DNA of 64,000 bases from the IMG/VR virus record IMGVR_UViG_3300032309_000931, positions 1 to 64,000 of that record; one strand, given 5' to 3'. Below the pieces are notes generated by a model that saw only the letters and a list, made by a program, of their open reading frames with translations, was not told the DNA's origin and did not search any database. Below are positions 1 to 64,000 of this stretch, one piece after another. Made by a program: the position numbers and the translations under genes. The stretch's first letter is position 1. The number at the start of each line of letters is the position of its first letter. The DNA is from a virus.

Positions 1-743
1 ACTGCCCCAGCCCCCTGACGAGCACCTAGCTGGTTAGCATAAGAGAATGAGTCTTCAAGAAGCTTCATTACTGGAATGACCCCTGAAGACTGGTTCTCAA
101 CCTTTTTGATTGGAGCACCTGCTTCACGAAGGTTTGTTAGGTTTAGTGCTACACCACCACCACGCTTTGAAAGCTGGAGTGAGGAGTTGATTGCACGAGC
201 AATCGATTCCATATTATCCTCAATACGGAGTAGGAAGCAAGAAACAAACTCTCCCCTTTGTTTCTTTGCAGCATTGAGAAATGTTGGTGTAGCAGGTTGA
301 AAGCGACCAGAGATTAGTTCATCAACTATATCAATCGCAAGTACTTTATTTCCGTTGGCAAGCATAAGGGCTGTAACAACTACACGATCTTCAAATCGTT
401 CTAGATAGCGTGAGCCATCGAATGTCTTGAGTGCATATGAGGTATAGAACTTGTATGCTCCAAGGAATGTTGGGAAGCGGAATCGCTTTGCGTATGCGTG
501 TTGAAACGCTGACTTAATAAAAGGGAAGTCGTAGAGATCTAAAACATCCTTGTCATAGTATTCGTGTTCAACTAAATAGTCCAGCTTCTCCTGAAGGCTG
601 TGGAAGAAGACAGTATTTTGGTTCACGTGGTCAAGGAAGTATGCCTTTGCAGCCTCCTTGTCTTTGTGAAACTGAATCTGACCATTCTCGTCATAGAGAT
701 TCAGCATTGCATTTAGTTCGTGGTAACTGTAGTTACTTGTCAT
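1..743 (-). CDS. nrdE: Ribonucleotide reductase class Ib alpha subunit (runs off window edge)
   Basis: Read by hand from ATG at 743: [25 protein letters not shown]...[11 protein letters not shown]...VSCFLL...SKRGGGVA...[10 protein letters not shown], typical NrdE motifs; follows nrdI. Confidence 0.95.
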
Positions 744-1134
744 CTAGCATCGCCAGCCTTTCTTTTATAGTGTTTACATCGTGGTCTGTGCCGAATATCT
801 CTACCCTGCCTAATATGGGGACACCTGTTTTAGCTGCAATCATTTCTGCAGCTTTACAGTAGTCTTCCCCAAAGTTTGTGTTCCCAAGCCCTACAACGCC
901 TACTAGCTTGTCTCTGTTACTTGCTACATTAAGGAATGAGCGAACCTGCCTTGGAATAGCGTGGCTCTCGCTCCCACCGCCGTAGGTTGGAACAAATAGT
1001 ACATATCTATCTTGTATTATGATTGGATCATCTGGATCACTGATTGGAATCCTGACTGCTTTTAATTCTAGCTTTTCTACAAACCTTTTAGTGTTTCCAG
1101 AATAGTTAGAAAAATAAACAATGTCTAAACTCAT
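733..1134 (-). CDS. nrdI: NrdI flavodoxin
   Basis: [27 protein letters not shown] motifs; adjacent to nrdE. Confidence 0.95.
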
Positions 1135-1143
1135 TGCTTGCTC

Positions 1144-2928: not shown

Positions 2929-3445
2929 CGGTAATCACCTCTTGGTTTTTTGAAACCTCAGAAAGTCTACGCATAATCTTGTCACGAACTTCTGGATGTT
3001 CTGCAGCAATATCTTTAAGAATGTCTTTAAGGATATCCTGTCTACGCTCAATCTCTAGCATCTCTTCTGCTAGTTCTTTGTTCTCAAGTAGACCAGCCTT
3101 CTGTAGCATATCAATACGCTTAGACTCAATGTCAAGAACTAGTTTGATACCTGCTGTTTTTGCACCTAAGTTTGAAATAGTTGTTGCTTCTTCAATAACT
3201 TCATATGCTTTGCTAATTAGTTTATTATAGTGAGTGTCTGCAGAGACAAGTGCTTCCTTAGCACGAGCACGAATCATTGCATTGTCTGCAGCCATAAGTT
3301 GCCACTCTTTAATGTGTGCAACAACTTTCTGACGTGGCAGAGACAGCTCTTTTGAAATTTGAGTTGGATCATTACCCTGTAGGTACTTCTCAACAACCTT
3401 GTTTACTTCGTCAAGGTGCTCTACTGTCAAGTCTTCAAACGACAC
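2912..3445 (-). CDS. HTH/coiled-coil protein, terminase small subunit candidate
   Basis: N-terminal HTH (PTQISKELSLPRQKV), helical remainder, overlaps terL start. Confidence 0.55.
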   Translation of the reverse strand: MSFEDLTVEHLDEVNKVVEKYLQGNDPTQISKELSLPRQKVVAHIKEWQLMAADNAMIRARAKEALVSADTHYNKLISKAYEVIEEATTISNLGAKTAGIKLVLDIESKRIDMLQKAGLLENKELAEEMLEIERRQDILKDILKDIAAEHPEVRDKIMRRLSEVSKNQEVITVVRDV

Positions 3446-3737
3446 TTGGCTTCGCCTTTCTTGGGCGACGCTTTGGGATACGCTTTACACGGTCAATAGC
3501 GAATGAGCGGTATGCCCCTGTTCGTCCTCGCCACATCTCAAAGCAATCAACCCAGACAGCACCATTCTTGGGGTTAGTTGTAATAGACTCGAACTTAAAT
3601 TTGGTTCCATACTCGCCAGTAACCTTAATCAAATCTCCACGCTCGATTGTGAAATTACCAAATGGCATTTCATAAATACGTTCATATGGATCTTTAGTCA
3701 CAGGACCATTATACTCTGTCTTACGAAGTCTAGCCAT
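3435..3737 (-). CDS. Hypothetical protein (SH3-like beta fold)
   Basis: ORF coupled to both neighbours. Confidence 0.6.
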   Translation of the reverse strand: MARLRKTEYNGPVTKDPYERIYEMPFGNFTIERGDLIKVTGEYGTKFKFESITTNPKNGAVWVDCFEMWRGRTGAYRSFAIDRVKRIPKRRPRKAKPSVV

Positions 3738-3973
3738 TAGAATTTCCCTTCAAGTCTTTTAATTTCATCCTGAATATAGAAGATAGCTTTTTCAAGATCT
3801 TGGATTGTCTTAGCTTGGTCTTTAAGTCCTGCCCTCCACAGATACTTAAATGCGTTGCCGACATTAAAGTTGCGGTGGCGTGTTATCTGGATGCATTCAA
3901 CTCCGCTTGGGTCTTGTGTATAGTGTGGTGGGTGGTTAACTTGGTCTACTGTAATTTTAAGGTTATCACTCAT
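3737..3973 (-). CDS. DUF3310/SaV-like protein
   Basis: VNHPPHY...ECI...GNAFKYLWRAGLK...DLEKAIFY signature. Confidence 0.85.
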   Translation of the reverse strand: MSDNLKITVDQVNHPPHYTQDPSGVECIQITRHRNFNVGNAFKYLWRAGLKDQAKTIQDLEKAIFYIQDEIKRLEGKF

Positions 3974-4125
3974 CGTTTACTCTTTCTTAGTCCGAACTTT
4001 GCAAGGTATACATAGATTGTTTCAACACTCGTTCCACACTCTTTAGCAATCTCCTCTGGAGTCTTGCGATCAATGTGATAGCGTTTGCGAAGCCAAGCTT
4101 CTGATTGATATAGTTTAGCACCCAT
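3970..4125 (-). CDS. Small HTH DNA-binding protein (51 aa)
   Basis: MGAKLYQSEAWLRKRY..KTPEEIAKECGTSVETIYVYLAKFGL; ATG at 4125 preferred to the longer ORF that overlaps the resolvase. Confidence 0.75.
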   Translation of the reverse strand: MGAKLYQSEAWLRKRYHIDRKTPEEIAKECGTSVETIYVYLAKFGLRKSKR

Positions 4126-4129
4126 AAAC

Positions 4130-4705
4130 CTATTTGTCAACCTTCTCCCAATTATTAATAGCCCAGTGACCAATTCCGATAGCGTCTGCCACGTCATTAT
4201 CACTAATAGACTTATTATAATACGTACTAACATAACGTATTGTTTTGTTTTTTCTGATTTCACGTTCTTGCCCCTTATACCAAGATTCAGACTTGCCTGG
4301 ATTATCTTTGCGAAGCTGCTGCTTTTCTACCGCAGATAATTTTGTATTACCAATAAATGATTGCCAAGTAATTGGGTTAACAGATCCACCTATCCTGATA
4401 CCGTTGATCTGTGCAGCACCTAGCATAGCTCCCTGAACTAGTGCTAAGTCTGCAGCAGTCTTTGGACTATTGATAAATACTGTATGCTCAATAACTATGG
4501 AATCAATATTAAATTTTTTAAAAAATGCTACACACTTTCTTGCAGCATCTCCAACTTTTTCATATGCATTACGACCAACAAAGTTAATTTTGCCAAATCT
4601 AATAAGTGACTTGTCTTCAAAAATAGCAAAAGCCAAACTGTTGGTGCTTGCATCTATAGAACAAATAGTTTTAGGGGCTGTGTTAATCAAGCTCAATTTT
4701 ACCAT
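4130..4705 (-). CDS. RuvC-like Holliday junction resolvase
   Basis: SIDASTNSLAFAIF, IVIEH, DNDVADAIGI acidic motifs. Confidence 0.8.
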   Translation of the reverse strand: MVKLSLINTAPKTICSIDASTNSLAFAIFEDKSLIRFGKINFVGRNAYEKVGDAARKCVAFFKKFNIDSIVIEHTVFINSPKTAADLALVQGAMLGAAQINGIRIGGSVNPITWQSFIGNTKLSAVEKQQLRKDNPGKSESWYKGQEREIRKNKTIRYVSTYYNKSISDNDVADAIGIGHWAINNWEKVDK

Positions 4706-4976
4706 CAGCAATCCCCTTCAACTCTTTTAAAATTTTATTTACTTCGGATGGGTTTATATCGCATCCAGAACAAGTCTGTTCATCGTTATAGATAGATAGT
4801 GTAGACCCACAGTTTTTACATTTTCTGTTCTTGCGAGATGCCTTCTGTAATCTATTTCTTGCATAACGCTCAGCTATCTTTTCTCTAGTAGCTAGTTCCC
4901 TACATTCAGGGGAGCAGTATATCTGATAAGATACATTTGGTTTAAACTGATTATCACACCATTGACAATGCTTCAT
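4683..4976 (-). CDS. Cys-rich zinc-finger protein
   Basis: CxxC...YCSPEC...CxxC...CxxC. Confidence 0.7.
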   Translation of the reverse strand: MKHCQWCDNQFKPNVSYQIYCSPECRELATREKIAERYARNRLQKASRKNRKCKNCGSTLSIYNDEQTCSGCDINPSEVNKILKELKGIADGKIELD

Positions 4977-5757
4977 CTATTTGCTCCAGTGACTTAATTT
5001 GTATTGTCCCTGGACCAGCAATATCGCAAGTTGCCCTAACTGGACACGTCTTGCAAATTTTTGAGTTGGATCGATAGTTCTTAGTAGGAAGAGTTTTATT
5101 CTCCCAAGCACTACGAACTTGTCGCATCCAATCAAATGCGGAGTCTACCCACCCCTTAAGGTAATCGTTCAGGACTACTGGGAGTACAAGCAACTCGTGG
5201 TTATTCTTGTTCTCATAGATTAGTACTGCACGTTCCCTTCCAAGAATCTTCATATAGATAAGCAACTGTACAAGGTGACCAAGTTTTGGCTTCCCTGCGG
5301 CTTTACGATATTCAAATCCTTCATTTGGCATTGTTTTAATTTCGCCAAGCAAGTCTTCTCCACCCCATTTAAGAATTACGTCACCGTAACCAAAGATGGG
5401 TGGATCCTGACTTGTAATTTTAAATTCAGAGTCAACTAGGAGGTCTGGCACGTTTGCCATAGCTTGCTGGATACGTTCGTGTGACTTAGTTCCAGCAGTC
5501 ATATTGGCTCCACCATATGCATCTGCATTATCTGTAAATGTTGCACCCTCAAAAGCAATGTACCAGTAACGAGGACACTCTCCGTGGGAGAATGCAATTG
5601 TACTGGGGGCAAAGGTCTTCTTTTGCTGGTGCTTATCAACACGGTTAATAATATATCCGTGCTGAATCTTTTTGATTAGCTCGTCAGTGTCTAAGAACGA
5701 TGTCTTCTTGTCATTAGCACCCTTGAGCATAACCTGGTTTAGTAAATTTTTTGCCAT
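4954..5757 (-). CDS. Cas4-like PD-(D/E)xK exonuclease
   Basis: GECPR, GYGD...EIKT, QLLIY, C-terminal CxxC..C Fe-S ligands; start moved to MAKNLL. Confidence 0.8.
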   Translation of the reverse strand: MAKNLLNQVMLKGANDKKTSFLDTDELIKKIQHGYIINRVDKHQQKKTFAPSTIAFSHGECPRYWYIAFEGATFTDNADAYGGANMTAGTKSHERIQQAMANVPDLLVDSEFKITSQDPPIFGYGDVILKWGGEDLLGEIKTMPNEGFEYRKAAGKPKLGHLVQLLIYMKILGRERAVLIYENKNNHELLVLPVVLNDYLKGWVDSAFDWMRQVRSAWENKTLPTKNYRSNSKICKTCPVRATCDIAGPGTIQIKSLEQIDEALSMV

Positions 5758-5764
5758 AATGTTT

Positions 5765-6079
5765 TTAACGAGTAATATATTTAAGTGCAGCAACTAGCTC
5801 ATTGATTGAACTAGCGGCTGTAAAATAAATATTTTTCTTCGCCCTATCTCCCTTATCTACGTTTGCCATCCAAGTAGCCTTGAATGACATCTTAGCAGCA
5901 ATGGCTTGCAACCGAACAATTTCAATAGAGGCTACCTGTGCAGGAATCTCTGGCTTAAAAATGATCTTTGCAATAAACGTAAGAGCTTCGGTAAGCTCTT
6001 CATCGTTCATAAAATCAGCGATCTCACTGAGACCATTGACTCGTTCTAATGTTGTCTTTGTTTCTTCCATTGTTTCCAA
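5765..6079 (-). CDS. Hypothetical helical protein
   Basis: ORF preceded by TATAAT and AAGGA. Confidence 0.65.
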   Translation of the reverse strand: METMEETKTTLERVNGLSEIADFMNDEELTEALTFIAKIIFKPEIPAQVASIEIVRLQAIAAKMSFKATWMANVDKGDRAKKNIYFTAASSINELVAALKYITR

Positions 6080-6103
6080 CTTCTACTATCCTTCTATTAT
6101 ACA

Positions 6104-6391
6104 CTACTCAGATGGTTCAGTCAATTGTTCTAAGATACCCAGCTCAATGACTGCTAGTCTTACTTTAGAATTACCCTCGCCAAGTACAATAATAATTGCT
6201 GGGTCTTTGTTACCACGAATTGCGTCAGTCGTAGCTTTAGCCCAAACTTCCTTATTGATAGTAAATGATTTCGATACCTCTTTAAAGTCAACAACAAACT
6301 GTCCCCAAGTAGCATCACCTTTGGTCGTATTACGTCCAGAATTTTTGTGTTGTTTTGCACCAATTCTCTTACTCTCGTTCTTCTCGCTCAT
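6104..6391 (-). CDS. PD-(D/E)xK endonuclease, Hjc-like resolvase candidate
   Basis: NSGR..KGDA...VDFKE motif; start MSEKNE. Confidence 0.6.
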   Translation of the reverse strand: MSEKNESKRIGAKQHKNSGRNTTKGDATWGQFVVDFKEVSKSFTINKEVWAKATTDAIRGNKDPAIIIVLGEGNSKVRLAVIELGILEQLTEPSE

Positions 6392-6557
6392 ACTGCTCCT
6401 TACGTTTTTTAGTATTGAGATCAACCTTGCTCAAGTGTCCATCTGGGCATAGCCAGGTAAGCTCTTTTAGTGTCCAGTACCACCTAATTGATTGCACCTG
6501 TGTTTTGCAAGTATGACAACTAAATGCACCCTTATACACATCGTACTTAGCTGCCAT
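6369..6557 (-). CDS. Small zinc-ribbon protein
   Basis: CHTC...CPDGH. Confidence 0.6.
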   Translation of the reverse strand: MAAKYDVYKGAFSCHTCKTQVQSIRWYWTLKELTWLCPDGHLSKVDLNTKKRKEQYEREERE

Positions 6558-7557
6558 TTAGCTGATCCTCAATAGACTTTCTAAACTCGTCGTTTTCTTT
6601 GACATAGTTAATAAAGGCTTCTCTACCCTGAACCTTCTTATCCTCAGAGACAATGTACCAAGCACCTGTACGAGATACTATACCTGCCATCTCAGCGGTG
6701 TCCACAAGGTCTCCAATAGCATCAATTCCAACATTAGCACCACGGAAGTAGAAGTCGTATTCACCGCTCTGAAAGCCTGGAGAGGTCTTAGAGAACTGTA
6801 ATTCCCACTTGACCTTACGACCAATCTTTTCTTCAATGAGTTTGTCTCCTACTGGAATCTTGCCCTTGATAGCCTGATTGTCAGACTCAGACGAGAACAA
6901 CTTGATAACAGTTGAGGAGTAAAACTTAGTAGCCTGTCCACCTGTTGGCTGTTGCTGAGTATACATTGCAGAGATGTTGTTGCGTGACTGTGAGATCAGG
7001 ACAAATAATGTTGGCTTGACTTTGTTGTTAGCATAGTTAATCATCTTCCAAGCGTTACTAAAGTCACGAGACTCTGCACCAATTTGCTTGGTGTTTTCAA
7101 GCTGCTTAAGTTCATCAGAATCCTTCTCAAAATAGATGGCAGGTAGTAGTGATGTAATAGAATCAACCACAACCATATCTACTCCTGCATTGATTAGTGC
7201 TGTGCCTACATCTACCATCTCATTAATAGTACGAGCCTGTGAGACAATGAGGTTTTCTGTGTCTACCCCAAGCTTCTTAGCCCAAGCTTCATCATACGAC
7301 ATCTCAGCATCAATCCACGCACAAAGCTTTCCCTCTGCTTGTGCAAGACCAACCATCTGAAGACAAAGAGAAGACTTCGCACTTGACTTTGACCCCCAGA
7401 TAAGAATCTGACGACCATATGGAAGTCCACCACCCAAAGCACGATTTAGACCGTAGCTAGGGGTAGGCTGGAATTCAGTTTTAAATCCTGCACCGTTAGA
7501 TAGACGCTTGCGGATGCGTGGGTCTAGCTGTGCTAGTGCTTCTTCCATAGTTGTCAT
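6547..7557 (-). CDS. recA: RecA/UvsX-like recombinase
   Basis: LNRALGGGLPYGR, GSKSSAKS P-loop variant, WIDAE, VVVDSI, GAWY. Confidence 0.9.
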   Translation of the reverse strand: MTTMEEALAQLDPRIRKRLSNGAGFKTEFQPTPSYGLNRALGGGLPYGRQILIWGSKSSAKSSLCLQMVGLAQAEGKLCAWIDAEMSYDEAWAKKLGVDTENLIVSQARTINEMVDVGTALINAGVDMVVVDSITSLLPAIYFEKDSDELKQLENTKQIGAESRDFSNAWKMINYANNKVKPTLFVLISQSRNNISAMYTQQQPTGGQATKFYSSTVIKLFSSESDNQAIKGKIPVGDKLIEEKIGRKVKWELQFSKTSPGFQSGEYDFYFRGANVGIDAIGDLVDTAEMAGIVSRTGAWYIVSEDKKVQGREAFINYVKENDEFRKSIEDQLNGS

Positions 7558-7781
7558 TAGATAGCCAACTTGTCTAGCTTTTCTGGAATGTATCCAGACC
7601 AACTATCGTTATCTGTAATCACTACAGGTGCTGATCGATATCCCAAACTAATCAATCTATCAAGTGCCGTGACATCGTTTGTAATGTCAACAAGGTCATA
7701 CGATACATCGATCTTATCTAAGTGACGCTTGGTAGCCTCACACTGTACGCAATTTGCTTTTGTAAATACTGTTACTGCCAT
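7557..7781 (-). CDS. nrdH: NrdH-like glutaredoxin
   Basis: CVQC active site, APVV, WSGY. Confidence 0.9.
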   Translation of the reverse strand: MAVTVFTKANCVQCEATKRHLDKIDVSYDLVDITNDVTALDRLISLGYRSAPVVITDNDSWSGYIPEKLDKLAI

Positions 7782-8116
7782 TAGAATTTTACTCCGTGTT
7801 TCTGTGGTCGTGACTTATTGAAAGCCGTCTTTTTTTCAAATGCCTCGTCTAGCGAGATGTGTGTGTATTCGTGCTCTACAAGCCCAGCGTAGAGATCAAG
7901 TGTGCGGATGATAATGTCTGCCATCTCGTCTGCTACTTCTTCTGGACCCTTTGATTTACGAATAGCCTCCATAACCTCAACTGCTTCTGACACAATCATC
8001 ATTAGCTGTTTAGCCATAAAGATATCCTTCTGCTCCTGTGATGCATCTTTAATTACATCCCAGAAACCTTTCTCTACTGCAATCTCGTGCAGGTGCTTTG
8101 TTACTTCATCAAACAT
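7781..8116 (-). CDS. MazG-like NTP pyrophosphohydrolase
   Basis: SEAVEVMEAIRK...EMADIIIR motif. Confidence 0.8.
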   Translation of the reverse strand: MFDEVTKHLHEIAVEKGFWDVIKDASQEQKDIFMAKQLMMIVSEAVEVMEAIRKSKGPEEVADEMADIIIRTLDLYAGLVEHEYTHISLDEAFEKKTAFNKSRPQKHGVKF

Positions 8117-11100
8117 CGAATACATCCTCCATAATTGTTGTTCCGTCTTTTGTCTTACCAAAAGAGAATTTATATACGTTGCCTTCCCTAATCTTCATAT
8201 ATGCCTTGGCAAATGTAGTTGGGAAGATTGTGATTGAGTGCAGATCTCGTGAAGAGTCTGCCACTACCATTGATGCCATTTTCTTACCAGCTTTAGTAAT
8301 ACGTGGTCTGAATGACACAACCATCATCTGGTCGTCTGTATATGGTAGCATACGGTAATTAAGAATCTTTACAAGACCTGAATCATTACCCTTGATTTCA
8401 TCTGCAGGGATTGCCGTAACAATACGATTATCACTTGCAAGAATAAGATAGGTACGTCCTGCTTCAACCTTAGATTGTTCTTCATCAAAGATACCGATGG
8501 CACCTGTCTTGTCTAGTATCTCTACTCTTGACCAGCCCTTGCCTCGCTTGATGCCCTTGACAATTCCCATAAGAATAAACGAACCCTTTTCCTCGTACTC
8601 TTCAACGTCATTGATAAATGCGTGATAGTGCTGTGGAATTGTTGTGTTGAACTCTGGTAGGTTTAGGTACTCATACAAGTTCTCACGAATCTCTTGGTCG
8701 TTACGAGGCTGGTCTGGGAACGTTGCAGCACCAATCAGACGTAGTGCTGACAATGCACGAGAATTAACTCCGTTGCCCTTACCAAACGAGAACTCTTCAA
8801 GTTCTTTGTATGAGTTGAATGGTCGTGCAGCAATGTACTTCTCAGCAATGTTATCACTAATAAACTTAATACCACTGAGACCGAATCGAATACCCTTGCC
8901 CTCAATCTTGAAGTCAGCATCTGAATCGTTGACGTGTGGTAACTTGATTGGGATACCCATACGCTTTGCTTCGATAAGATACTCTGTACGAGCATCCTTG
9001 TCCTTCTCGTTCTTAAGAAGTGCAAACATAAACTCGATTGGGTAGTAGTACTTGAGCCAAGCAGTCCAGTAGGACAGTGTTGAGTATGCTACAGCGTGGG
9101 ACTTATTGAATGAGTACCCAGCGTGAGCCTCAAAGTCGTGCCACAGTTCTTCTGCCACTTCTGGACGAACGTGCTGAGAAGCACCCTTAACGAATCGCTC
9201 TTTGAACACATCAAACTCACGAGCGTCTTTCTTCTTACCAATGATCTTACGAACCTTGTCAGCTTCTGCCATTGACATACCGCCAAGTTCTGTACACGCA
9301 AGCATAACCTGCTCCTGGTACAAGACACAGCCGTATGTTTCATTCGTAAATGTCTTCATCTTTTCGTGCAAGAATGTAATGCGTTGTTTGCCGTGCTTGC
9401 GAGCAATGTAGTCCTTACCAATGGTGTTCATAGCACCTGGACGGACGAGAGCATTAGAAGCAGCAAGCTCTGCAAAGTTCTTGACACCCATCTTCACCAG
9501 AAGGTTGGTATATGGTGTGGCTTCACACTGGAACACACCCTTAGTGAATCCATCGGACAGCATAGCATAAACATTCTTATCTTCCATATCAATCTTAAGA
9601 AGATCAATGTCTTTGCCTTCACGATCCTTGATGATTGCAAGCGTGTCCTGAAGAACAGATAGTGTCTTGAGACCAAGAGCATCAATCTTAATAAGACCAA
9701 TACGTTCTGCCTCTGTCATATCTACCGCAACAACAGGGATACGCTCTTTAGTTCCTGGTGCTGTGCGTGTCTCCATTGGAGCAAACTTAAAGATAGGCTC
9801 CTTAGATGTAACGACACCTGCAGCGTGAATACCAGTACCACGGATACGACCACGGAGCTGTTCTCCATATTTTTCAATCTCTGGATACTTCTCACGGAAT
9901 TCTGCTGTGGATGATGAAGAGCAATAGTCTTCCCACGTATCAACAAGCTTCATAACCTTATTAACGTCAGGAAGTGGGATATTGAGTACACGAGCAATGT
10001 CTCGCACAACACCCTTATCCTTGAACTGCAAGAACGTAGCAATAGAGGCAACGTGACGGTACTGGCGTACAAGGTAGTCCTTGACTTCTTCACGTCGTGT
10101 ATCCTGAATATCTGTATCAATATCTGGGAAGTCATTACGCTCTGGGTTAATAAATCGGAAGAACAGTAGACCGTGTACGATAGGGTCAATGTCTGTGATA
10201 CCAAGTGAATAACAGAGTAGCGAACCAGCAGACGAACCACGTCCTGGTCCGACCATAATGCCTTCCTTCTTAGCCCAAGCAATCATAGAGCGTACAACGA
10301 GGAAGTATGGACCAAAGTTTTTAGCCTTAATGATCTCTAGCTCTTCGTTGAGGCGGTCAATATATTCCTGGTTCTGGTCTAGCCCCTTAGCCTTTAAGCC
10401 CTCCAGAGCGAGGCTGAGGAGCTCTCCGTCTGGGTCCTGGTACTGTACAGGGAGCAAATCACGATAGTCTTGAATGTCGTAATCCTCAATCTTGTTTACG
10501 ATTTCAATAGTTGCTTCATACATATCCTCACGGTCAATACCCTGAGCTTTCATAGCATTGTGCATCTCTTCATCGGAGAGCAGGTGGATATCAAACTTGT
10601 TAAACGACATTTGACGGTCTTCACCATAAAGGTAGTCCAGCTTGTCCATAAGGTTGTCATACTTCTTTGTACCGTTGTATGTTGCATCTCCAACAGTCTT
10701 GTTTGAGTATGAGTTAAGGATTAGTTTAAGTTCCTGGATTTCTTTCTGACTGGTATCAGAGTGGTGGCAGTCTGGTGTAACGACAGGCTTGATGCCAAAC
10801 TCGTCTGCAAACTCCAAAAGCATTTTATTGACTTCTGCAGGGTTGTGTGGCATTACCTCAATGTAGTAGTCGTCACCGAATGTTTCCTTACACCACTTAA
10901 TGTGTTCTTTGGCATAGGCTAGGTTGTCTGATTCAATTGCCTTAGCCAGTACCCCAGACAAACAGCCAGAGGTAATAATAAGACCTTCTTTATACTGTTC
11001 AAGGATCTTCCAGTCGATGCGAGGCTTCTTGTAGAACCCCTCTGTCCAAGCAAGCTCATTAAGCTTGTTAAGGTTCTCAAGACCTTTTGTATTCTTTGCA

Positions 11101-11387
11101 AGAATGATAAGGTGATTATAGTTAAGATCAAGTGGGTCGTTCTTGTCTTTTTTGTCTGTGTGGTCTAAACGGTCTTTGGTGATGTATCCCTCAATACCAA
11201 GAATTGGTTTAATACCAGCCTCTTTAGCAGAGCGATAAAGCTCACGGTGTCCTGAGAGGCTTCCGTGGTCTGTAATAGCGATGGCTGGCATTCCAAGTGC
11301 AACTGCACGATCCACATATTCCTGTGGTGTAGCAATGCCATCAAAAAGCGAGTAGTGGGTATGAACGTGAAGCCCAGCGTAACTCAT
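8109..11387 (-). CDS. dnaE: DNA polymerase III alpha subunit
   Basis: PHP domain HVHTHYSLFDG/TDHG, GRGSSAGS, PDIDTD, FNKSH, C-terminal OB fold. Confidence 0.96.
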   Translation of the reverse strand: MSYAGLHVHTHYSLFDGIATPQEYVDRAVALGMPAIAITDHGSLSGHRELYRSAKEAGIKPILGIEGYITKDRLDHTDKKDKNDPLDLNYNHLIILAKNTKGLENLNKLNELAWTEGFYKKPRIDWKILEQYKEGLIITSGCLSGVLAKAIESDNLAYAKEHIKWCKETFGDDYYIEVMPHNPAEVNKMLLEFADEFGIKPVVTPDCHHSDTSQKEIQELKLILNSYSNKTVGDATYNGTKKYDNLMDKLDYLYGEDRQMSFNKFDIHLLSDEEMHNAMKAQGIDREDMYEATIEIVNKIEDYDIQDYRDLLPVQYQDPDGELLSLALEGLKAKGLDQNQEYIDRLNEELEIIKAKNFGPYFLVVRSMIAWAKKEGIMVGPGRGSSAGSLLCYSLGITDIDPIVHGLLFFRFINPERNDFPDIDTDIQDTRREEVKDYLVRQYRHVASIATFLQFKDKGVVRDIARVLNIPLPDVNKVMKLVDTWEDYCSSSSTAEFREKYPEIEKYGEQLRGRIRGTGIHAAGVVTSKEPIFKFAPMETRTAPGTKERIPVVAVDMTEAERIGLIKIDALGLKTLSVLQDTLAIIKDREGKDIDLLKIDMEDKNVYAMLSDGFTKGVFQCEATPYTNLLVKMGVKNFAELAASNALVRPGAMNTIGKDYIARKHGKQRITFLHEKMKTFTNETYGCVLYQEQVMLACTELGGMSMAEADKVRKIIGKKKDAREFDVFKERFVKGASQHVRPEVAEELWHDFEAHAGYSFNKSHAVAYSTLSYWTAWLKYYYPIEFMFALLKNEKDKDARTEYLIEAKRMGIPIKLPHVNDSDADFKIEGKGIRFGLSGIKFISDNIAEKYIAARPFNSYKELEEFSFGKGNGVNSRALSALRLIGAATFPDQPRNDQEIRENLYEYLNLPEFNTTIPQHYHAFINDVEEYEEKGSFILMGIVKGIKRGKGWSRVEILDKTGAIGIFDEEQSKVEAGRTYLILASDNRIVTAIPADEIKGNDSGLVKILNYRMLPYTDDQMMVVSFRPRITKAGKKMASMVVADSSRDLHSITIFPTTFAKAYMKIREGNVYKFSFGKTKDGTTIMEDVFDV

Positions 11388-11456
11388 AGAATCCTTACGT
11401 TAGAAATGAAAAGTTTAAGGTGGGCAGATTATAGTGATGCCCAGCACTGTGAAATA

Positions 11457-31616: not shown

Positions 31617-31661
31617 TGTTTCCTCCTTGTTAGGCTTATTAAATTATATCACAAAAGCCGT

Positions 31662-57885: not shown

Positions 57886-58047
57886 CTAGGCTAGTGGAAT
57901 CCAAGACCCACACTCTAGGCACGTGTCCGTAGCAACGTGGAACCAAGATTCTTCGTCACACACTACGCAGTCAGCGATAGCGTATCCTTCAACGTGCTGT
58001 CCACTAGCGAGCATTTCGTCACATTCTTCTGAGAGTAGCATTTCCAT
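57886..58047 (-). CDS. 53-aa zinc-ribbon microprotein
   Basis: MEMLLSEECDEML...CVVC...CLECG; AAAGGACA RBS; own promoter at 58084-58105. Confidence 0.65.
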   Translation of the reverse strand: MEMLLSEECDEMLASGQHVEGYAIADCVVCDEESWFHVATDTCLECGSWIPLA

Positions 58048-58288
58048 TTGTCTGTCCTTTGTTTGTGTTTCTTTGATATCTAAATACTATGTCATAGCAC
58101 GGACATATAACTACCAATACCGCACATATTTAGGTGAACAATAGGTTAACAAATTTTGCGCCCCCCACGCAACATTCTTGCGTGTTTTTACGACTTACGC
58201 AATAAATCCCCAAATAGCCTGTTTTTAGCCCTATTCTGGTAGTTTTATGTCGGTGGTCGATGTTACACTAAATATATAAACAAACAGA

Positions 58289-58370
58289 GAAACCAAAGAG
58301 AGTGAGCCTCTCAGAGCAAATAAGACCCAAAGGGTATGAGCCTCTCAGAGCAAATAAATCTCAAGGTTTC
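58289..58370 (+). ncRNA. Structured leader with two copies of the RUGAGC/CAAAUAAR motif
   Basis: GAAACC..GAGA GTGAGC CTCTCAGAG CAAATAAG ACCC-AAA-GGGT ATGAGC CTCTCAGAG CAAATAAA TCTC..GGTTTC. Confidence 0.55.
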
Positions 58371-58388
58371 AGATAAGGATAGAAAATA

Positions 58389-58499
58389 ATGAATGAATTT
58401 CACGGAAATTGCCAAAAGTGTGGCACTTGGAATCGAATTGCGTTTGTAGGTTCGATGTCCCTTAGCCAATTGCTTTGCAAGGCTTGCCGTAACAAGTAA
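58389..58499 (+). CDS. 36-aa zinc-ribbon microprotein
   Basis: MNEFHGNCQKCGTWNRIAFVGSMSLSQLLCKACRNK; AAGGA RBS. Confidence 0.7.
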   Translation: MNEFHGNCQKCGTWNRIAFVGSMSLSQLLCKACRNK

Positions 58500-58691
58500 G
58501 CCCCATAGCTTGTGCATAAGTTATCCACAGGCGGCGCACCACCATATCTAGTAACATACTGACATTTACGTACTACATATAGATTCCCCTGAATTATAAC
58601 AAAATGGTAACATAGCGTAACAATAGGGCATATCGATTAGTTATATGTCGGTGGTCTGTGTTAGGCTGTAGACATAAAGAAAGGAAATGAA

Positions 58692-58814
58692 ATGAACGAA
58701 TTTCACGGTAACTGCCAGAACTGTAAGGTCTGGACAAAGGTAGCCTTCAATGGCTCAATGGGTCTGAGTGAGTTGCTCTGCTCGCTCTGCCGTATGACAC
58801 AGGCTACCAAGTAG
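58692..58814 (+). CDS. 40-aa zinc-ribbon microprotein (paralog of 58389)
   Basis: MNEFHGNCQNCKVWTKVAFNGSMGLSELLCSLCRMTQATK. Confidence 0.7.
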   Translation: MNEFHGNCQNCKVWTKVAFNGSMGLSELLCSLCRMTQATK

Positions 58815-58866
58815 TTTCGTGTCGTACCTCTAGGCTATACTGATAACAACAAGTAAGGACAAACAA

Positions 58867-59046
58867 ATGGAAATCGAAAACGAAATCGACATCAACGAAG
58901 TTGAGGACATCAACATCAACACTCTCACGCCTAAGCAAATGGCACTACGCCTAAACGCTCTCGTTCGTTTGGCTCAGGGTGAAACATTCACTACCCACGA
59001 TTTTGAGGAAGCCCTAACGCTCACTCGCAAACTGGCTAAGCGATAG
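58867..59046 (+). CDS. 59-aa microprotein with acidic N-terminus
   Basis: MEIENEIDINEVEDININ...; AAGGACA RBS after promoter. Confidence 0.65.
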   Translation: MEIENEIDINEVEDININTLTPKQMALRLNALVRLAQGETFTTHDFEEALTLTRKLAKR

Positions 59047-59054
59047 GGGAACCA

Positions 59055-59144
59055 ATGCTAGTCTCAAACATCGCCACAGTAATTTGTGTGCTACTAATCG
59101 GATACCTAATAATCTACATCGCTCAGGAGATAAGCAATGACTAA
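59055..59144 (+). CDS. 29-aa TM microprotein
   Basis: MLVSNIATVICVLLIGYLIIYIAQEISND. Confidence 0.5.
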   Translation: MLVSNIATVICVLLIGYLIIYIAQEISND

Positions 59145-59226
59145 ATGTAAAGAGTGTAAGCGTAACCTAACTGTAATAATCGAAAACTATCCTGATTTGT
59201 GTTGGTCGTGTGTGATGGAACAGTAG
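59137..59226 (+). CDS. 29-aa CxxC/CxxC microprotein
   Basis: MTKCKECKRNLTVIIENYPDLCWSCVMEQ; AGGAG RBS. Confidence 0.55.
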   Translation: MTKCKECKRNLTVIIENYPDLCWSCVMEQ

Positions 59227-59395
59227 GCGGATCGACTTATCCACAGCCCCCGAAAAGTTATCCACAGGGGGGCGCAAACTTATCCACAGCCTGTTAGTAA
59301 CTTAGTTACGAATTGTTACGAACTTTCCCTAAAATTCCCTAGTTTTATGTCGGTGGTCAATGATAAAATGTAAACATACAAGCAAAGGACAAAAA

Positions 59396-59512
59396 ATGAA
59401 CTGGTATCAAGTACTCGTAGAGTATGATGAAATGATTGGCACAATCTATGTTGCGGCAGATGAATTGGAAGCATTCAAGGCAAAGTATAAAGTGCTAAGC
59501 GTAATCATCTAG
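59396..59512 (+). CDS. 38-aa microprotein
   Basis: MNWYQVLVEYDEMIG...; AAAGGACA RBS. Confidence 0.65.
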   Translation: MNWYQVLVEYDEMIGTIYVAADELEAFKAKYKVLSVII

Positions 59513-59568
59513 GGTTTCGTGTCGGTGGTCGCTGGTATACTAATAACATAAACAAGAAAAGGACAATA

Positions 59569-59709
59569 ATGACAAAGAGTCGATACACAACCGTACTGGT
59601 GGAAATGCCAGACAAGATTTTTTTCCAAGCAATCCACATCTATGATTGGGCTAAGGAAATCGAATACTTGAAATCTCAGGGTGCTACTTCTATCACTATA
59701 GCCAAGTAG
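59569..59709 (+). CDS. 46-aa microprotein
   Basis: MTKSRYTTVLVEMPDK...; AAAGGACA RBS. Confidence 0.65.
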   Translation: MTKSRYTTVLVEMPDKIFFQAIHIYDWAKEIEYLKSQGATSITIAK

Positions 59710-59718
59710 TTATCCACA

Positions 59719-59768
59719 GGGGTATCGAATGAGCCTGTAGTTATCCACAGCAAATAAGTCGATACCCC
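59719..59768 (+). ncRNA. RUGAGC/CAAAUAAR motif copy 3
   Basis: GGGGTATCGA ATGAGC CTGT-AGTTATCC-ACAG CAAATAAG TCGATACCCC. Confidence 0.55.
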
Positions 59769-59901
59769 CAAAGTTATCCACAGGCTGCGCCCCACGCAAG
59801 TTTATTGCGTCTTTATGAAGATAGTTGCGTTTTCCCTGAATTGGGGGGTTTTATGTCGGTGGTCGGCTGTATACTGATAACATAGACAGAAAAGGACAAC
59901 T

Positions 59902-60081
59902 ATGACAAATCAACTCCCAGAAAACAAGGCAACTGCCGAACAGTATGAAACTCTCAAATCGCTTATCACAAAGCGTTACCCTGACGCAGACCTGCTTCAC
60001 ATCTACGCTTCACTCTCAGGCGTACTTTCAGTAGGCGTATCTGAAGAGGCTATGGCACGACTTATCGAACTACACCAGTAG
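59902..60081 (+). CDS. 59-aa microprotein
   Basis: MTNQLPENKATAEQYE...; AAAGGACA RBS. Confidence 0.65.
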   Translation: MTNQLPENKATAEQYETLKSLITKRYPDADLLHIYASLSGVLSVGVSEEAMARLIELHQ

Positions 60082-60133
60082 TTTCGTGTCGGTGCTCACC
60101 AGTATAATTGTAATACAAGCAGAAAAGGAAAAA

Positions 60134-60367
60134 ATGGAACAACTAATCGGAACAAACGTAAAAACACACAACCACGCTTATCTTGGTGAGGTTCGCAACG
60201 TGTCTAGACTGTTTGTAAAGCCTATCTATCGTCACCTGAGAGGCATTGAGGCTAACGAGCCTTATGTTGCCTACGCTGTCGAAATCGAAGGCTCGGACAG
60301 TCCTAAAGGCTGGACAACGCTTATCGCTCGTGATGAAGCAGACATCCTGAAGCGTTACGCAGTCTAA
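60134..60367 (+). CDS. Small hypothetical protein
   Basis: Start MEQLIG after AAAGGA. Confidence 0.65.
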   Translation: MEQLIGTNVKTHNHAYLGEVRNVSRLFVKPIYRHLRGIEANEPYVAYAVEIEGSDSPKGWTTLIARDEADILKRYAV

Positions 60368-60374
60368 TCCGTAA

Positions 60375-60416
60375 GGGGAGAGAGTGAGCCTCGCAAGAGC
60401 AAATAAATCTCTCCCC
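60375..60416 (+). ncRNA. RUGAGC/CAAAUAAR motif copy 4
   Basis: GGGGAGAGA GTGAGC CTC-GCAA-GAG CAAATAAA TCTCTCCCC. Confidence 0.55.
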
Positions 60417-60579
60417 AAACAGGATACATTCCAAAATGGGAATGTGTGTCAATCTCAAAAAAATGCGCCCCCCCCCACCCCTAGCCTTAATTACGAATTA
60501 AGAAAACAAATCCCAGATTCCCGAATTAGATGTCGGTGGTCAATGTTATACTGTATACATAACGAAAGGACATAAGCAA

Positions 60580-60846
60580 ATGGCTTACTCAAACACTCAC
60601 GCAGATTTCTACCAGACGGCTATGGGGACTATGGTCACAGAGCCTCAGTCGGCTTGGGATACCTCTACTCACTGTGCAGACTGTGGCGTTCAGTACGCTT
60701 ACTGTGGCTGCCCCAACGAGGACATTGACGAGCCTGTTGATGGCTTTGCTGTCTGTGCTGTCTGCGACTATACCGTTCGTGGACTATTCTATCTCAATGG
60801 GGATTCAACTGGTCGCTGTGCTGGATGCCATAACTCTATTCGATAG
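60580..60846 (+). CDS. Cys-rich zinc-binding protein
   Basis: CADC..CGC..CAVC..CAGC; AAAGGACA RBS. Confidence 0.7.
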   Translation: MAYSNTHADFYQTAMGTMVTEPQSAWDTSTHCADCGVQYAYCGCPNEDIDEPVDGFAVCAVCDYTVRGLFYLNGDSTGRCAGCHNSIR

Positions 60847-60985
60847 GAGTTATCCACAGGCTGGGGCGCAGCTTTTGATCCTAGACATAATTACGTAAGC
60901 ATTAAAAATACCCTGGAAATTTCCCTAGTTTTATGTCGGTGCTCAGATGTATAATTATATTATCAACCAAACAAAGGACAAAGTA

Positions 60986-61537
60986 ATGACTACTCTCACC
61001 GCTAACGAAATTCACACCGCAACTGCTACAGATTTGTACCGTGACCTGATTGTTCGTGCTACTCTTGGACAGGTCGAACAGGCTAGTGTCTGGTATCACG
61101 AAGCACAAGAAGTTGCCCAAGAGGTTGCTCGTAATCTGGACACAACGCTAGAGGTTGGTGCTAGTGTCGTATCTGCGTTTTCTCCTCGTGAGCGTTGGGC
61201 AAGCAACATCGAAAAGGCTGTGGCGTTCTCACTTGGACACACGCCTAAAGGATTGGGCAACAACCTCAAAATGGCACAGTCCTCGCTGACTGCTGGATTC
61301 TATGCCCTCAAGGGTCTCAAGACTAATGCGTTTGCTCGTGCCATTGCTGGAGATACTGACGCTGTTGTGATTGACATTTGGATGATGAGAGCGGCAGGTA
61401 TGGAAACTGATAGCCCAACTCAAGGACAGTATTTCGCACTCTCACTTGCTTGCCGTAATGTCGCTAAAGAATTTGGGCTTACTCCTCGCACCGCACAGGC
61501 TCTGATTTGGATTCTCGTGAGAGGCTCAGCAATCTAA
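60986..61537 (+). CDS. HhH-GPD/DNA glycosylase-like helical protein
   Basis: WY..A..VA, SAFSP..RW..N, GLKTNAF, VVIDIW..RA, P..AQALIW. Confidence 0.55.
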   Translation: MTTLTANEIHTATATDLYRDLIVRATLGQVEQASVWYHEAQEVAQEVARNLDTTLEVGASVVSAFSPRERWASNIEKAVAFSLGHTPKGLGNNLKMAQSSLTAGFYALKGLKTNAFARAIAGDTDAVVIDIWMMRAAGMETDSPTQGQYFALSLACRNVAKEFGLTPRTAQALIWILVRGSAI

Positions 61538-61653
61538 GGGCTACCCCGAAAGGGGTTGCGCCCCACGCAGCTTTCTTGCGTAATTACGAACAATTTTTGT
61601 TTTTCCCTAAATTTGGGTAGTTATGTGTCGGTGCTCTGATGTATACTAATACT

Positions 61654-61818
61654 ATGAAGAAAAAGAACCCAACTCACAAAGGTATTGAGAACAAGCCCTA
61701 CATTGAGGCTATGCGTGAATTGCGTAGGTCTAACGCAGCCACTACCCACGACAACCGCCCTAACCGTTTGCGTACTCGCAAAGCAATCAAAACCCAAGCA
61801 ATCAAGGAGAACGAATAA
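61654..61818 (+). CDS. 54-aa basic microprotein, leaderless
   Basis: MKKKNP...MRELRRSNAATTH..R.RTR; ATG 6 nt after TATACT. Confidence 0.65.
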   Translation: MKKKNPTHKGIENKPYIEAMRELRRSNAATTHDNRPNRLRTRKAIKTQAIKENE

Positions 61819-61985
61819 TGGAATGTGAATTCTGCACTAATGAAAAACTGGCTACCGTTTCGGTTATGCACCTGCGTGACCGTATCGAACAAGCCGCCTG
61901 TGGCAAGTGTGCCAACGACCTATCTGATGAAAAGTGGGTAGTCACTCACGAATTCGACACATCTATCTGGGATTTTGCAGGGTAG
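61818..61985 (+). CDS. 55-aa zinc-finger microprotein
   Basis: MECEFC...ACGKC; TAATG coupling, AAGGAG RBS. Confidence 0.6.
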   Translation: MECEFCTNEKLATVSVMHLRDRIEQAACGKCANDLSDEKWVVTHEFDTSIWDFAG

Positions 61986-62040
61986 TTATGTGTCGGTGGT
62001 CTAGGTTATAATAGTAATACGAACAAAGAAAAGGACAGAA

Positions 62041-62214
62041 ATGAAAAAGTACAACTTCACTGGTTTCGCATTCGGTAGTAACGGAGAAATGGTTTTCCGT
62101 ATTGAGGTTCTGAACCACACCGAAAACGGAACAAATGTTTCCACCCAAATCGATTTGGAACTCACACCAGAGGAACGAACCGAACTCATCACCCAACTTA
62201 TCTCAATCAAGTAG
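62041..62214 (+). CDS. 57-aa microprotein
   Basis: MKKYNFTGFAFGSNG...; AAAGGACA RBS. Confidence 0.65.
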   Translation: MKKYNFTGFAFGSNGEMVFRIEVLNHTENGTNVSTQIDLELTPEERTELITQLISIK

Positions 62215-62265
62215 TTTGGTGTCGGTGCTTCACGCTATAATAGAACTACGAACAAAGGACAATAA

Positions 62266-62445
62266 ATGAAAGACACAATCAACCGTTCAGGTGAGGTAAT
62301 CGAAAATCTCACAATCGCACAGGGTGACCGCCGTTATGCTTACGCATTTGCGTTTGGATTTGCGTGGTCTTTGCTCTCGGAAAAGAACCGTAAAGAGTTG
62401 CTGAAAATCTCAGAACGAAAAGCACAAGAAAAGGACAACGACTAA
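62266..62445 (+). CDS. 59-aa microprotein
   Basis: MKDTINRSGEVIENL...YAFAFGFAWSLL; AAAGGACA RBS. Confidence 0.6.
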   Translation: MKDTINRSGEVIENLTIAQGDRRYAYAFAFGFAWSLLSEKNRKELLKISERKAQEKDND

Positions 62446-62642
62446 TGACAAAGTATCCAGAAATCGAAGTACAACTTACAGGACAAGACGGCAACGCATT
62501 CGCAATTATGGGTGCGGTATCTCGTGAACTCCGCAAGGCTGGGGTATCCAAAGAGGAAATCAACGAATACACTACGCAATCTATGTCTGGCGACTATGAC
62601 AACCTTTTGCGTACTGCTATGGCTTGGGTGAGTGTATCCTAA
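62445..62642 (+). CDS. Conserved phage hypothetical protein
   Basis: LTGQDGNAFAIMG.V...LR.AG...SGDYDNLL. Confidence 0.75.
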   Translation: MTKYPEIEVQLTGQDGNAFAIMGAVSRELRKAGVSKEEINEYTTQSMSGDYDNLLRTAMAWVSVS

Positions 62643-62821
62643 TGATGACACGCAAAGACTATGTAGCCGTTTCAGAATTGCTGAACACCTACGCTCTCAA
62701 AATAGATGAGCAAACATTCGACCTACTCATTCACGACTTTGCTGGACTGATGGCAAAGGACAATGAGCGTTTCATCGCTGACCGTTTCATCTCCGCTTGC
62801 TGGAATGGCGAGAATGCTTGA
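62642..62821 (+). CDS. Conserved phage hypothetical protein
   Basis: MTRKDY...DNERF..DRF..AC. Confidence 0.7.
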   Translation: MMTRKDYVAVSELLNTYALKIDEQTFDLLIHDFAGLMAKDNERFIADRFISACWNGENA

Positions 62822-62879
62822 GATTATTGTTATCACGCTGGGGGTATTGGCAGTACTCCTGGCGTGGTTCAATGACTAA
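62814..62879 (+). CDS. 21-aa TM peptide
   Basis: MLEIIVITLGVLAVLLAWFND; overlaps upstream stop. Confidence 0.35.
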   Translation: MLEIIVITLGVLAVLLAWFND

Positions 62880-62998
62880 AATTTTGCGCCCCCCTGCCCT
62901 CACAAACCTATTACTAACCTTACGATCTTTTTCCCGAAATTCACAGAGTTTGATGTCGGTGGTACTTGGTATAATAGAAACATAACGAAAGGACACTA

Positions 62999-63304
62999 AT
63001 GAACGACGGAACATACCTCAACCTTGACGGAAAGTTTATTCTCTCTCACGCCAAGTCTGGCTATTGGGTAGCCGTTCACAAGTACGACAGCCTTGACGAC
63101 ACTATTTCAGGGGATTACGTAGGCGTGTGGACAAATCCCGAAACTGGCGTTATGTACCTTGACCGTAGCGTTTGGGTGTCTGACTTGGACAACGCTATCG
63201 CTCTGGGTAAGTCACAAGGACAATTGGCTATCTGGGACTGTGCCAATGAAACAGAAATCTGGCTCAACGAATACTTTGCCGATGTATTCAAAGACGAAGT
63301 TTGA
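62999..63304 (+). CDS. Hypothetical protein
   Basis: YVGVW...YLDRS...A..LG..GQLAIWD; AAAGGACA RBS. Confidence 0.75.
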   Translation: MNDGTYLNLDGKFILSHAKSGYWVAVHKYDSLDDTISGDYVGVWTNPETGVMYLDRSVWVSDLDNAIALGKSQGQLAIWDCANETEIWLNEYFADVFKDEV

Positions 63305-63332
63305 TGTCGGTACTCCCCTGTATAATTAGACT

Positions 63333-63443
63333 ATGAACGAACAATTTATCGAATGCCCCCAATGTGGCGACACAGTAATCGAATCCGATATGCGTGAGGT
63401 AGGCGTATGTTGGGAATGTGACTATCTACCAGAGGAGAAATAA
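63333..63443 (+). CDS. 36-aa zinc-ribbon microprotein, leaderless
   Basis: MNEQFIECPQCG...VCWECD; ATG 6 nt after TATAAT. Confidence 0.6.
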   Translation: MNEQFIECPQCGDTVIESDMREVGVCWECDYLPEEK

Positions 63444-63722
63444 ATGGGAAGAATGTTTGTAGAGAGTATCAAGGAACTTGGCGATATCGAATTAGAGGAT
63501 ATGGTGAGTATGCACTTCAGTAGCAATTGCTACCCCCCAATTCCACAGTTTATGGTGCAGTCAGCGGTAGCCGCTATCAACGCTTGCAACTATGGTGACT
63601 ACAATGAGGTAATCCAATTGCCACACGGAGTCACTTACAGGGGTAGTGAGTTTGTTGATGCAGCCACCTATGTCGAAGCACACCGCCTTGAGGGATTCGT
63701 AGAATGGGAGTATGAGGACTAA
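63444..63722 (+). CDS. Hypothetical protein
   Basis: HFSSNCYPPIP...LPHGVTYRG...HRLEGF; AGGAG RBS. Confidence 0.75.
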   Translation: MGRMFVESIKELGDIELEDMVSMHFSSNCYPPIPQFMVQSAVAAINACNYGDYNEVIQLPHGVTYRGSEFVDAATYVEAHRLEGFVEWEYED

Positions 63723-63811
63723 TGGACTGGGAAAACGTAATTGACTGGAAAGTTGTTGACAGGTTGACAGACGAACAGGTATCCGCTATACTGGATATGT
63801 TCGACAAGTAA
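63722..63811 (+). CDS. 29-aa microprotein
   Basis: MDWENVIDWKVVDRLTDEQVSAILDMFDK; TAATG coupling. Confidence 0.5.
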   Translation: MDWENVIDWKVVDRLTDEQVSAILDMFDK

Positions 63812-63818
63812 GGATAAA

Positions 63819-63992
63819 ATGACTGACTATATACTCAAATATCAGGTATGGAATGGACACGAGGACGGTAAGTTGGCAACGTTCCGTCACTTGGAACAGG
63901 CACAACTGTTTGTCGATAGCGTGAGAGCATTCTATCCCAAGGTATTTGTTTATGATGTTTTGACTGGACAACGATTGGTGAGTGCAGACTAG
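63819..63992 (+). CDS. 57-aa microprotein
   Basis: MTDYILKYQVWNG...; AAGGA RBS. Confidence 0.55.
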   Translation: MTDYILKYQVWNGHEDGKLATFRHLEQAQLFVDSVRAFYPKVFVYDVLTGQRLVSAD

Positions 63993-64000
63993 GAGCTGCG

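Follow-up and report, generated by a model that had tools for sequence, protein, structure and literature searches.

What reads the promoters that stand, one after another, ahead of a long run of very small genes in an uncultured phage? The question is raised by IMG/VR virus record IMGVR_UViG_3300032309_000931, a sequence of 93,875 bp (40.6% GC, estimated completeness 87%) whose bases 1-64000 make up the window, that is, the whole 64,000-nucleotide (nt) stretch of DNA in which the locus was noticed. Toward the right end of the window, the element TGTCGGTG-N8-TAnnnT recurs ahead of short transcription units, and a preliminary description had taken it for RecA-NDp, the actinobacterial DNA-damage promoter read by the activator PafBC. 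Based on the letters, spacing and surroundings of this element, we propose, at a probability of roughly 60%, that the copies are working members of the host's PafBC-dependent promoter class, read by host PafBC together with RNA polymerase (RNAP) carrying SigA. The phage would then probably be borrowing a host alarm switch that responds to single-stranded DNA.

An array of co-oriented promoters

Is the repetition more than chance? The comparison with shuffled sequence proposed in the preliminary description gives 12 matches to the full pattern in the window, all on the plus strand from 58248 to 62975, where dinucleotide shuffles lead one to expect 0.01; the bare octamer TGTCGGTG occurs 15 times in the window against 1.03 expected. 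A mismatch-tolerant scan locates three variants, TGTCGTAC at 58820, TGTCGGTA at 63305 and TGTCCGTG on the minus strand at 58105-58084, so that our recount arrives at the same 14 plus-strand copies and 1 minus-strand copy, twelve with the exact octamer, and the same three variants as first reported. Past the window, copies stand at 64064, 64516, 65544, 65942 (TGTCAGAC), 66904, 68142 and 68800, which brings the whole record to 22 copies, 21 plus and 1 minus, the last at 68.8 kb. The full TGTCGGTG is exact in 16 of these, and TGTCGGTGG is the most over-represented 9-mer of the record. No copy lies upstream of the structural or replication genes, as had been claimed; the class is restricted to one block of the genome. 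The in-window features are listed below, by coordinates and strand (ORF, open reading frame; aa, amino acids).

58084..58105, minus: PafBC-type promoter, TGTCCGTG-N8-TAGTAT, divergent from the array; heads a 53-aa Cys-rich ORF, 57886-58047 (-)
58248..58269, plus: PafBC-type promoter, exact octamer, -10 TACACT; 119-nt leader, then a 36-aa ORF, 58389-58499
58646..58667, plus: PafBC-type promoter, exact octamer; heads ORF 58692-58814
58820..58841, plus: degenerate copy, TGTCGTAC-N8-TATACT, TGTC kept; heads ORFs 58867-59226
59348..59369, plus: PafBC-type promoter, exact octamer
59520..59541, plus: PafBC-type promoter, exact octamer
59854..59875, plus: PafBC-type promoter, exact octamer
60087..60108, plus: PafBC-type promoter, exact octamer, -10 TATAAT
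60531..60552, plus: PafBC-type promoter, exact octamer; heads an 88-aa Cys-rich ORF, 60580-60846
60934..60955, plus: PafBC-type promoter, exact octamer; heads a DUF7178 gene, 60986-61537
61626..61647, plus: PafBC-type promoter of a leaderless gene; ATG 7 nt past the -10, on the predicted start base
61991..62012, plus: PafBC-type promoter, exact octamer
62220..62241, plus: PafBC-type promoter, exact octamer; heads four ORFs, 62266-62879
62954..62975, plus: PafBC-type promoter, exact octamer; heads ORF 62999-63304
63305..63326, plus: variant TGTCGGTA-N8-TATAAT; leaderless ATG at 63333
58389..64000, plus: in-window part of the small-gene block, ~22 ORFs of 29-183 aa
63764..63792, plus: sigma-70-type promoter look-alike, TTGACA-17-TATACT, inside the array

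The block of small genes, nearly all of whose ORFs belong to no known family, continues to ~71.2 kb of the record and is ~13 kb long. 

Do the copies act as promoters? When every position is allowed to vary, TGTC is nonetheless unchanged in 22 of 22 copies and the variation falls only in octamer positions 5-8, while the distance from the box to the -10 element is constant across all copies, as the preliminary description had stated. The -10 element is mostly TATAAT or TATACT, and exactly 7 nt past it stands an A in all 22 copies. The same A is found in 84% of 150 distinct instances drawn from 22 other viral loci, in which positions 9-10 next to the octamer (G, T) are conserved as well. There is no -35 hexamer: a sigma-70 scan flags one copy only, that at 68142 (TTGTTA-18-TATAAT), and a GTTTTA-like sequence fills the -35 position. 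Most copies are followed by an AAAGGA-type ribosome-binding site and an ATG 23-30 nt away. The copies at 61626 and 63305 have no ribosome-binding site, and their ATG follows after exactly 6 nt, on the predicted start A, which suggests leaderless messages. The copy at 58248 has a 119-nt leader. With these features side by side, the copies look like real, working promoters.

Could the repeats instead be a mere by-product of cassette duplication, with the box under no selection? Some neighboring units are indeed paralogous (ORFs 58389 and 58692 are 85% identical over their first 34 nt), but box, -10 element and start A are fixed where the 8-nt spacers and flanks differ between copies, and the same pattern recurs in the 150 distinct instances from other viral loci. 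The conservation pattern contradicts duplication as the sole cause, and we reject that explanation as scarcely credible.

The array holds other repeated elements. The 119-nt leader of the 58248 unit contains two copies of a GAGCCTCTCAGAGCAAATAA repeat; GAGTGAGCCTCTCAGAGCAAATAA is repeated three to four times, at 58293-58362 and 60379-60411, with two copies in tandem in that same leader, and could represent either an RNA structure or a site bound by a protein. Eight co-oriented AGTTATCCACAGG elements (0.81 expected) lie at 58521..60858 (+) in the spacers between units, with more copies at 71199 and 71220. Each contains TTATCCACA, the Escherichia coli DnaA-box consensus, and they could serve as a sponge for DnaA, as a sensor or as the binding site of some phage protein.

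GC-only palindromes of four bases are nearly purged from the 94-kb genome: where ~159 of each are expected, GGCC and CCGG number 0, CGCG 1 and GCGC 13. All 13 GCGC sites fall within the small-gene array, at 58158, 58534, 59272, 59787, 60465, 60866, 61558, 62886 and 63998 in the window and at 65478, 66827, 68055 and 71245 past it. Ten of the 13 read GCGCCC(C) on the plus strand and the others GCGCA; for 8 of the 13, a PafBC-type box follows 66-68 nt downstream. The nick consensus of phage T5 is R/GCGCRGG (PMC3517423), and any likeness of GCGCCCC to it is speculative. GCGCCCC is not kept in all related arrays, and since 5 of 22 related loci have no GCGC at all, it cannot be a general requirement.

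Likeness to the PafBC class and the host side

How closely does the phage element resemble that of PafBC? Chromatin immunoprecipitation of PafBC in vivo gave the consensus tGTCgg(N10)tA(N3)T, with the 5' part at -23 to -28, and PafBC promoters have no -35 element and a GTC triplet that is read by PafB (PMC8635444). The phage motif equals this consensus in letters and spacing, including the -26 element and the 10 nt from GG to TA. Set beside the PafBC-dependent promoters (RecA-NDp, recA P1-type), the phage copies have in common TGTCGG(TG) at -26, the GG-TA gap, TAnnnT, the missing -35 and an invariant GTC, and the phage leaderless starts 7 nt past the -10 element are like those of host DUF222 genes. 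The differences lie in arrangement and strength: unlike the host class, the phage has 22 tandem co-oriented copies on tiny genes rather than on repair genes, a near-consensus -10 element and an A/T-rich GTTTTA flank upstream.

On the host side, we scanned a sample of 401 Actinomycetota genomes, with the reversed pattern as control; no claim made here draws on sampled genomes that were flagged as unpublished. Large genomes are strongly enriched in the exact 22-nt pattern, with 32 matches against 0 for the control in G387, 24 against 2 in G058 and 18 against 1 in G143. All 8 larger genomes examined have a single xGTCxx-N10-TAnnnT in the 300 nt ahead of recA, and in 6 of the 8 its box is exactly TGTCGGTG. 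The motif thus equals both the published consensus and the octamer found upstream of recA, and at the level of sequence the identity first proposed for the element is strongly supported. Multicopy DUF222/HNH-like genes of actinobacteria (G101, G115, G260, G051, G143; L168-L172) carry TGTCGGTG(G/T)TCGAA(C/T)GTATGTT, in which a PafBC box and a LexA-type palindrome are fused; these genes start leaderless, 7 nt past the -10 element.

Which bacteria, then, might the phage infect? The record encodes a DnaE-type polymerase, a portal protein, an HK97-type capsid protein and, at 85395-85715 (-), WhiB (41 bits, cut-off 23.6). Its nearest isolates are Streptomyces phages of clusters BE/BK (Stanwilliamsviridae), with 46-56% protein identity in portal and DnaE, and where bacterial genome bins contain relatives of its WhiB, these lie on phage-like contigs of freshwater metagenome-assembled genomes (MAGs). 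On these three grounds, the record is, to judge by its genes, an uncultured freshwater actinophage, of lytic type, and WhiB together with the Streptomyces phage kinship agrees with the actinobacterial host group named in the preliminary description. Naming the host through relatives of WhiB or of ribonucleotide reductase (RNR) failed, the matches being phage-like contigs or probably misbinned phage contigs: the RNR small subunit has a single match (84% identity), a small contig in an Aquiluna MAG that is probably another misbinned phage piece.

Do low-GC, streamlined actinobacteria have PafBC at all? Among 27 small genomes (1.2-1.5 Mb), a strong HTH_PafC match occurs only in G314, G341, G363 and G024; these four, and none of the others, have a GTC-type box upstream of recA. 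In G363 (42% GC), TGTCGGATGGCTGTTTTATAAT stands upstream of recA, and a tandem gene pair matches one-to-one the PafB/PafC genes adjoining pafA in G051. The PafB-PafC pair is kept in G363, G024 and G341 (38-42% GC) and also in the Aquiluna MAG G003. Based on the recA box and gene pair of G363, low-GC streamlined actinobacteria can, as far as gene content tells, own PafBC and use the box, though many sampled genomes do not. In G363, G024, G341 and G003, the PafB-PafC pair is present and Pup ligase was not found; it seems that the damage regulator persists longer than the Pup-proteasome locus from which it takes its name.

A proposed host-read module and its rivals

In the proposed mechanism, host RNAP-SigA would bind the -10 element (TATAAT/TATACT), and host PafBC loaded with single-stranded DNA would insert between sigma region 4 and the TGTC box ("sigma adaptation"). 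PafBC would so switch on ~22 short transcription units, together some 45 small genes, with transcription starting at the A 7 nt beyond the -10 element. PafBC is switched on by single-stranded DNA of at least 6 nt, for which a free end is unnecessary, and it joins only RNAP already at such a promoter (PMC11804915). Where might the single-stranded DNA come from? End resection of the incoming DNA, phage replication and breakdown of host DNA are candidate sources. In this scheme, that PafBC binds, when the units are expressed, where the single-stranded DNA arises and which host is infected are all inferences.

The phage also has other promoters. TTGACA-17-TATAAT occurs at 15 sites matching at least 11 of 12 positions, against 3.35 in shuffles. 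Perfect 12/12 sites stand at 65633 (+, inside the array) and at 72909, 73904 and 89429 (-), the three on the minus strand heading genes of the 72-94 kb minus-strand block. Most sites of the class head the minus block at 72-90 kb, with ThyX, dCMP deaminase, WhiB, lysin and ribonucleotide reductase. From their sequence, these would form a second class, one able to fire without an activator. Ahead of the structural genes stand extended -10 promoters, TGATATAATTA, at 31651, 36306, 52812, 53552, 54937 and 55508 (-); after several of them an ATG begins 6-9 nt further on, pointing to leaderless late messages. Given the canonical and extended -10 classes elsewhere in the record, the array is only a candidate for the first-expressed module.

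Several observations weigh against reading by host PafBC. On the host side, the search for pafBC in actinobacterial genomes had a divided outcome: the genes are present in the four low-GC or streamlined genomes with the PafB-PafC pair, and a PafC match is absent in 20 of the 27 small actinobacterial genomes. Moreover, low-GC genomes that do bear PafC have no genome-wide enrichment of the box, nor is the box enriched genome-wide in four MAGs. The closest isolated relatives infect PafBC-bearing Streptomyces, yet have ordinary promoters in the equivalent array. On the phage side, the -10 element is near consensus, so the promoters might fire without any activator, and the TTGACA-17-TATAAT promoters, needing none, could fire before the array. 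Finally, a reader encoded by the phage itself could be among the many small proteins without a known family or, the record being 87% complete, sit in the missing part, and the canonical promoters elsewhere could express it first.

These last points lead to an alternative that we judge unlikely, if the most serious one: that the box is read by a phage-encoded factor, either a small protein or WhiB acting on sigma region 4, after the manner of the MotA/AsiA-dependent middle promoters of T4, and that the likeness to the PafBC box is mimicry or coincidence. Such a factor could be made first, from the consensus -35/-10 promoters of the 72-90 kb block; both this phage and 7 of 8 large relatives encode WhiB; and, as noted, most array proteins have no known family and part of the record is missing. 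Mimicry or coincidence would, however, have to reproduce the host element at every informative position and in spacing, with GTC invariant. No WYL domain was found in the window, as the preliminary description had said, nor in the remainder of the 93,875-bp record or in 22 related array-bearing records, and a search for sigma-70 region 2 across the record found none. WhiB is the only DNA-binding family among the scanned proteins of the 72-94 kb block, and its candidacy is weakened by Jay2Jay and BillNye, Streptomyces phages that lack the motif although they encode homologues of WhiB (34-40% identity).

Could the -10 element suffice on its own? If the copies were constitutive, -10-only SigA promoters, the octamer would have another purpose, such as that of a shut-off operator or of a sponge that draws PafBC off the host's repair and defense regulon. 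We regard this as distinctly improbable. In its favor, TATAAT and TATACT are much nearer to consensus than -10 elements like TAGCGT, which host PafBC promoters have. Promoters with a -10 only (extended -10) also head the phage's own structural genes, and at least 22 perfect sites would exceed the few host sites in streamlined genomes. What speaks against it is that the box stands at the exact activating distance from the -10 element in every copy, and that no repressor candidate was identified for the operator version. As for the sponge, since PafBC joins only promoter-bound RNAP (PMC11804915), titration and promoter activity would be one act.

To return to reading by host PafBC, does incoming DNA activate the module by itself, as first suggested? 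In the form in which GCGCCCC nick or gap sites would furnish local single-stranded DNA that loads PafBC, we consider self-activation of an early module very doubtful. If it were true, infection would trip the host damage sensor purposely and at phage genes only.

Relatives, map position and known phage modules

Jay2Jay offers a guide to what the array might be. This phage has a perfect direct terminal repeat of 11,438 bp (1-11438, L132) that holds a small-gene array on the strand opposite to the remaining genome, and its units are headed by a GGGCCCTTCGGGGCCC-type terminator hairpin, then CCGGACA, then a TAGACT-type -10 element; CCGGACA occurs in 15 copies on the minus strand of the first 14 kb. 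Like the array of the lake phage, that of Jay2Jay lies between the WhiB arm and the structural arm on the opposite strand, and both use the ribosome-binding site AAGGACAA and have one terminator and one promoter per unit. Portal, DnaE and WhiB lie 18, 47 and 13 kb from the array here, and the corresponding distances in BE-cluster phages are similar, 15, 46 and 8 kb (taken from Jay2Jay for portal, WhiB and the edges of the repeat, and from other BE phages for DnaE). Terminal repeats are the usual seat of host-takeover genes. Based on this synteny, we posit that the 13-kb array is probably a collapsed terminal repeat with genes of the host-takeover type.

The promoters themselves differ. Unlike the lake phage, Jay2Jay has CCGGACA with TAGACT-type promoters and a single TGTCGG-N10-TAnnnT genome-wide; the array motif is carried by neither Jay2Jay nor BillNye, the two relatives examined, and it is therefore not a family-wide trait. 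A megablast comparison of the array with 50,697 phage records gave no match. In an IMG/VR scan, the motif turned up in many contigs, and more than 20 other viral contigs have co-oriented arrays of 5-18 copies; these are low-GC lake viral contigs (34-46% GC, plus one at 55%), and WhiB is present in 7 of 8 that are at least 37 kb long.

What would it mean for a phage to be wired in this way? Early promoters of phages are usually plain host promoters or are read by factors that the phage makes. Our literature search found no paper on phage promoters of the PafBC type, and a search with the bare octamer returned primer sequences only. If the proposed reading is true, the host's sensor of single-stranded DNA would control a whole phage block by way of sigma adaptation, a mechanism described only recently; the timing of phage genes would be tied to the host's damage and defense alarm, and PafBC biology would reach beyond mycobacteria to the abundant actinobacteria of lakes and the viruses that infect them. 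The phage is also a source of natural, near-consensus PafBC-type promoters for the published in vitro transcription assay.

How does the array compare with known phage systems? The terminal-repeat takeover modules of SPO1, the pre-early genes of T5 and the PeSL cassettes of T4-type phages rely on ordinary sigma-70/SigA promoters. Like the lake-phage array, they are made up of numerous very short genes, in units that each have a strong promoter and a boundary element of their own, and placement in a terminal repeat, probable for the array, is a further likeness. Their promoters, unlike those of the array, are not wired to a damage-sensing activator. A second comparison is with the middle promoters of T4 (a MotA box at -30 plus a -10 element), which share with the array a missing -35, a conserved box and, on the proposed reading, an adaptor on sigma region 4. 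In T4 "sigma appropriation," MotA and AsiA are encoded by the phage and remodel sigma. Searches of the lake phage for WYL and sigma-70 region 2 found no phage adaptor (the MotA and AsiA families were not searched for), and, unlike in T4, the conserved box of the array corresponds to the site of an activator that belongs to the host.

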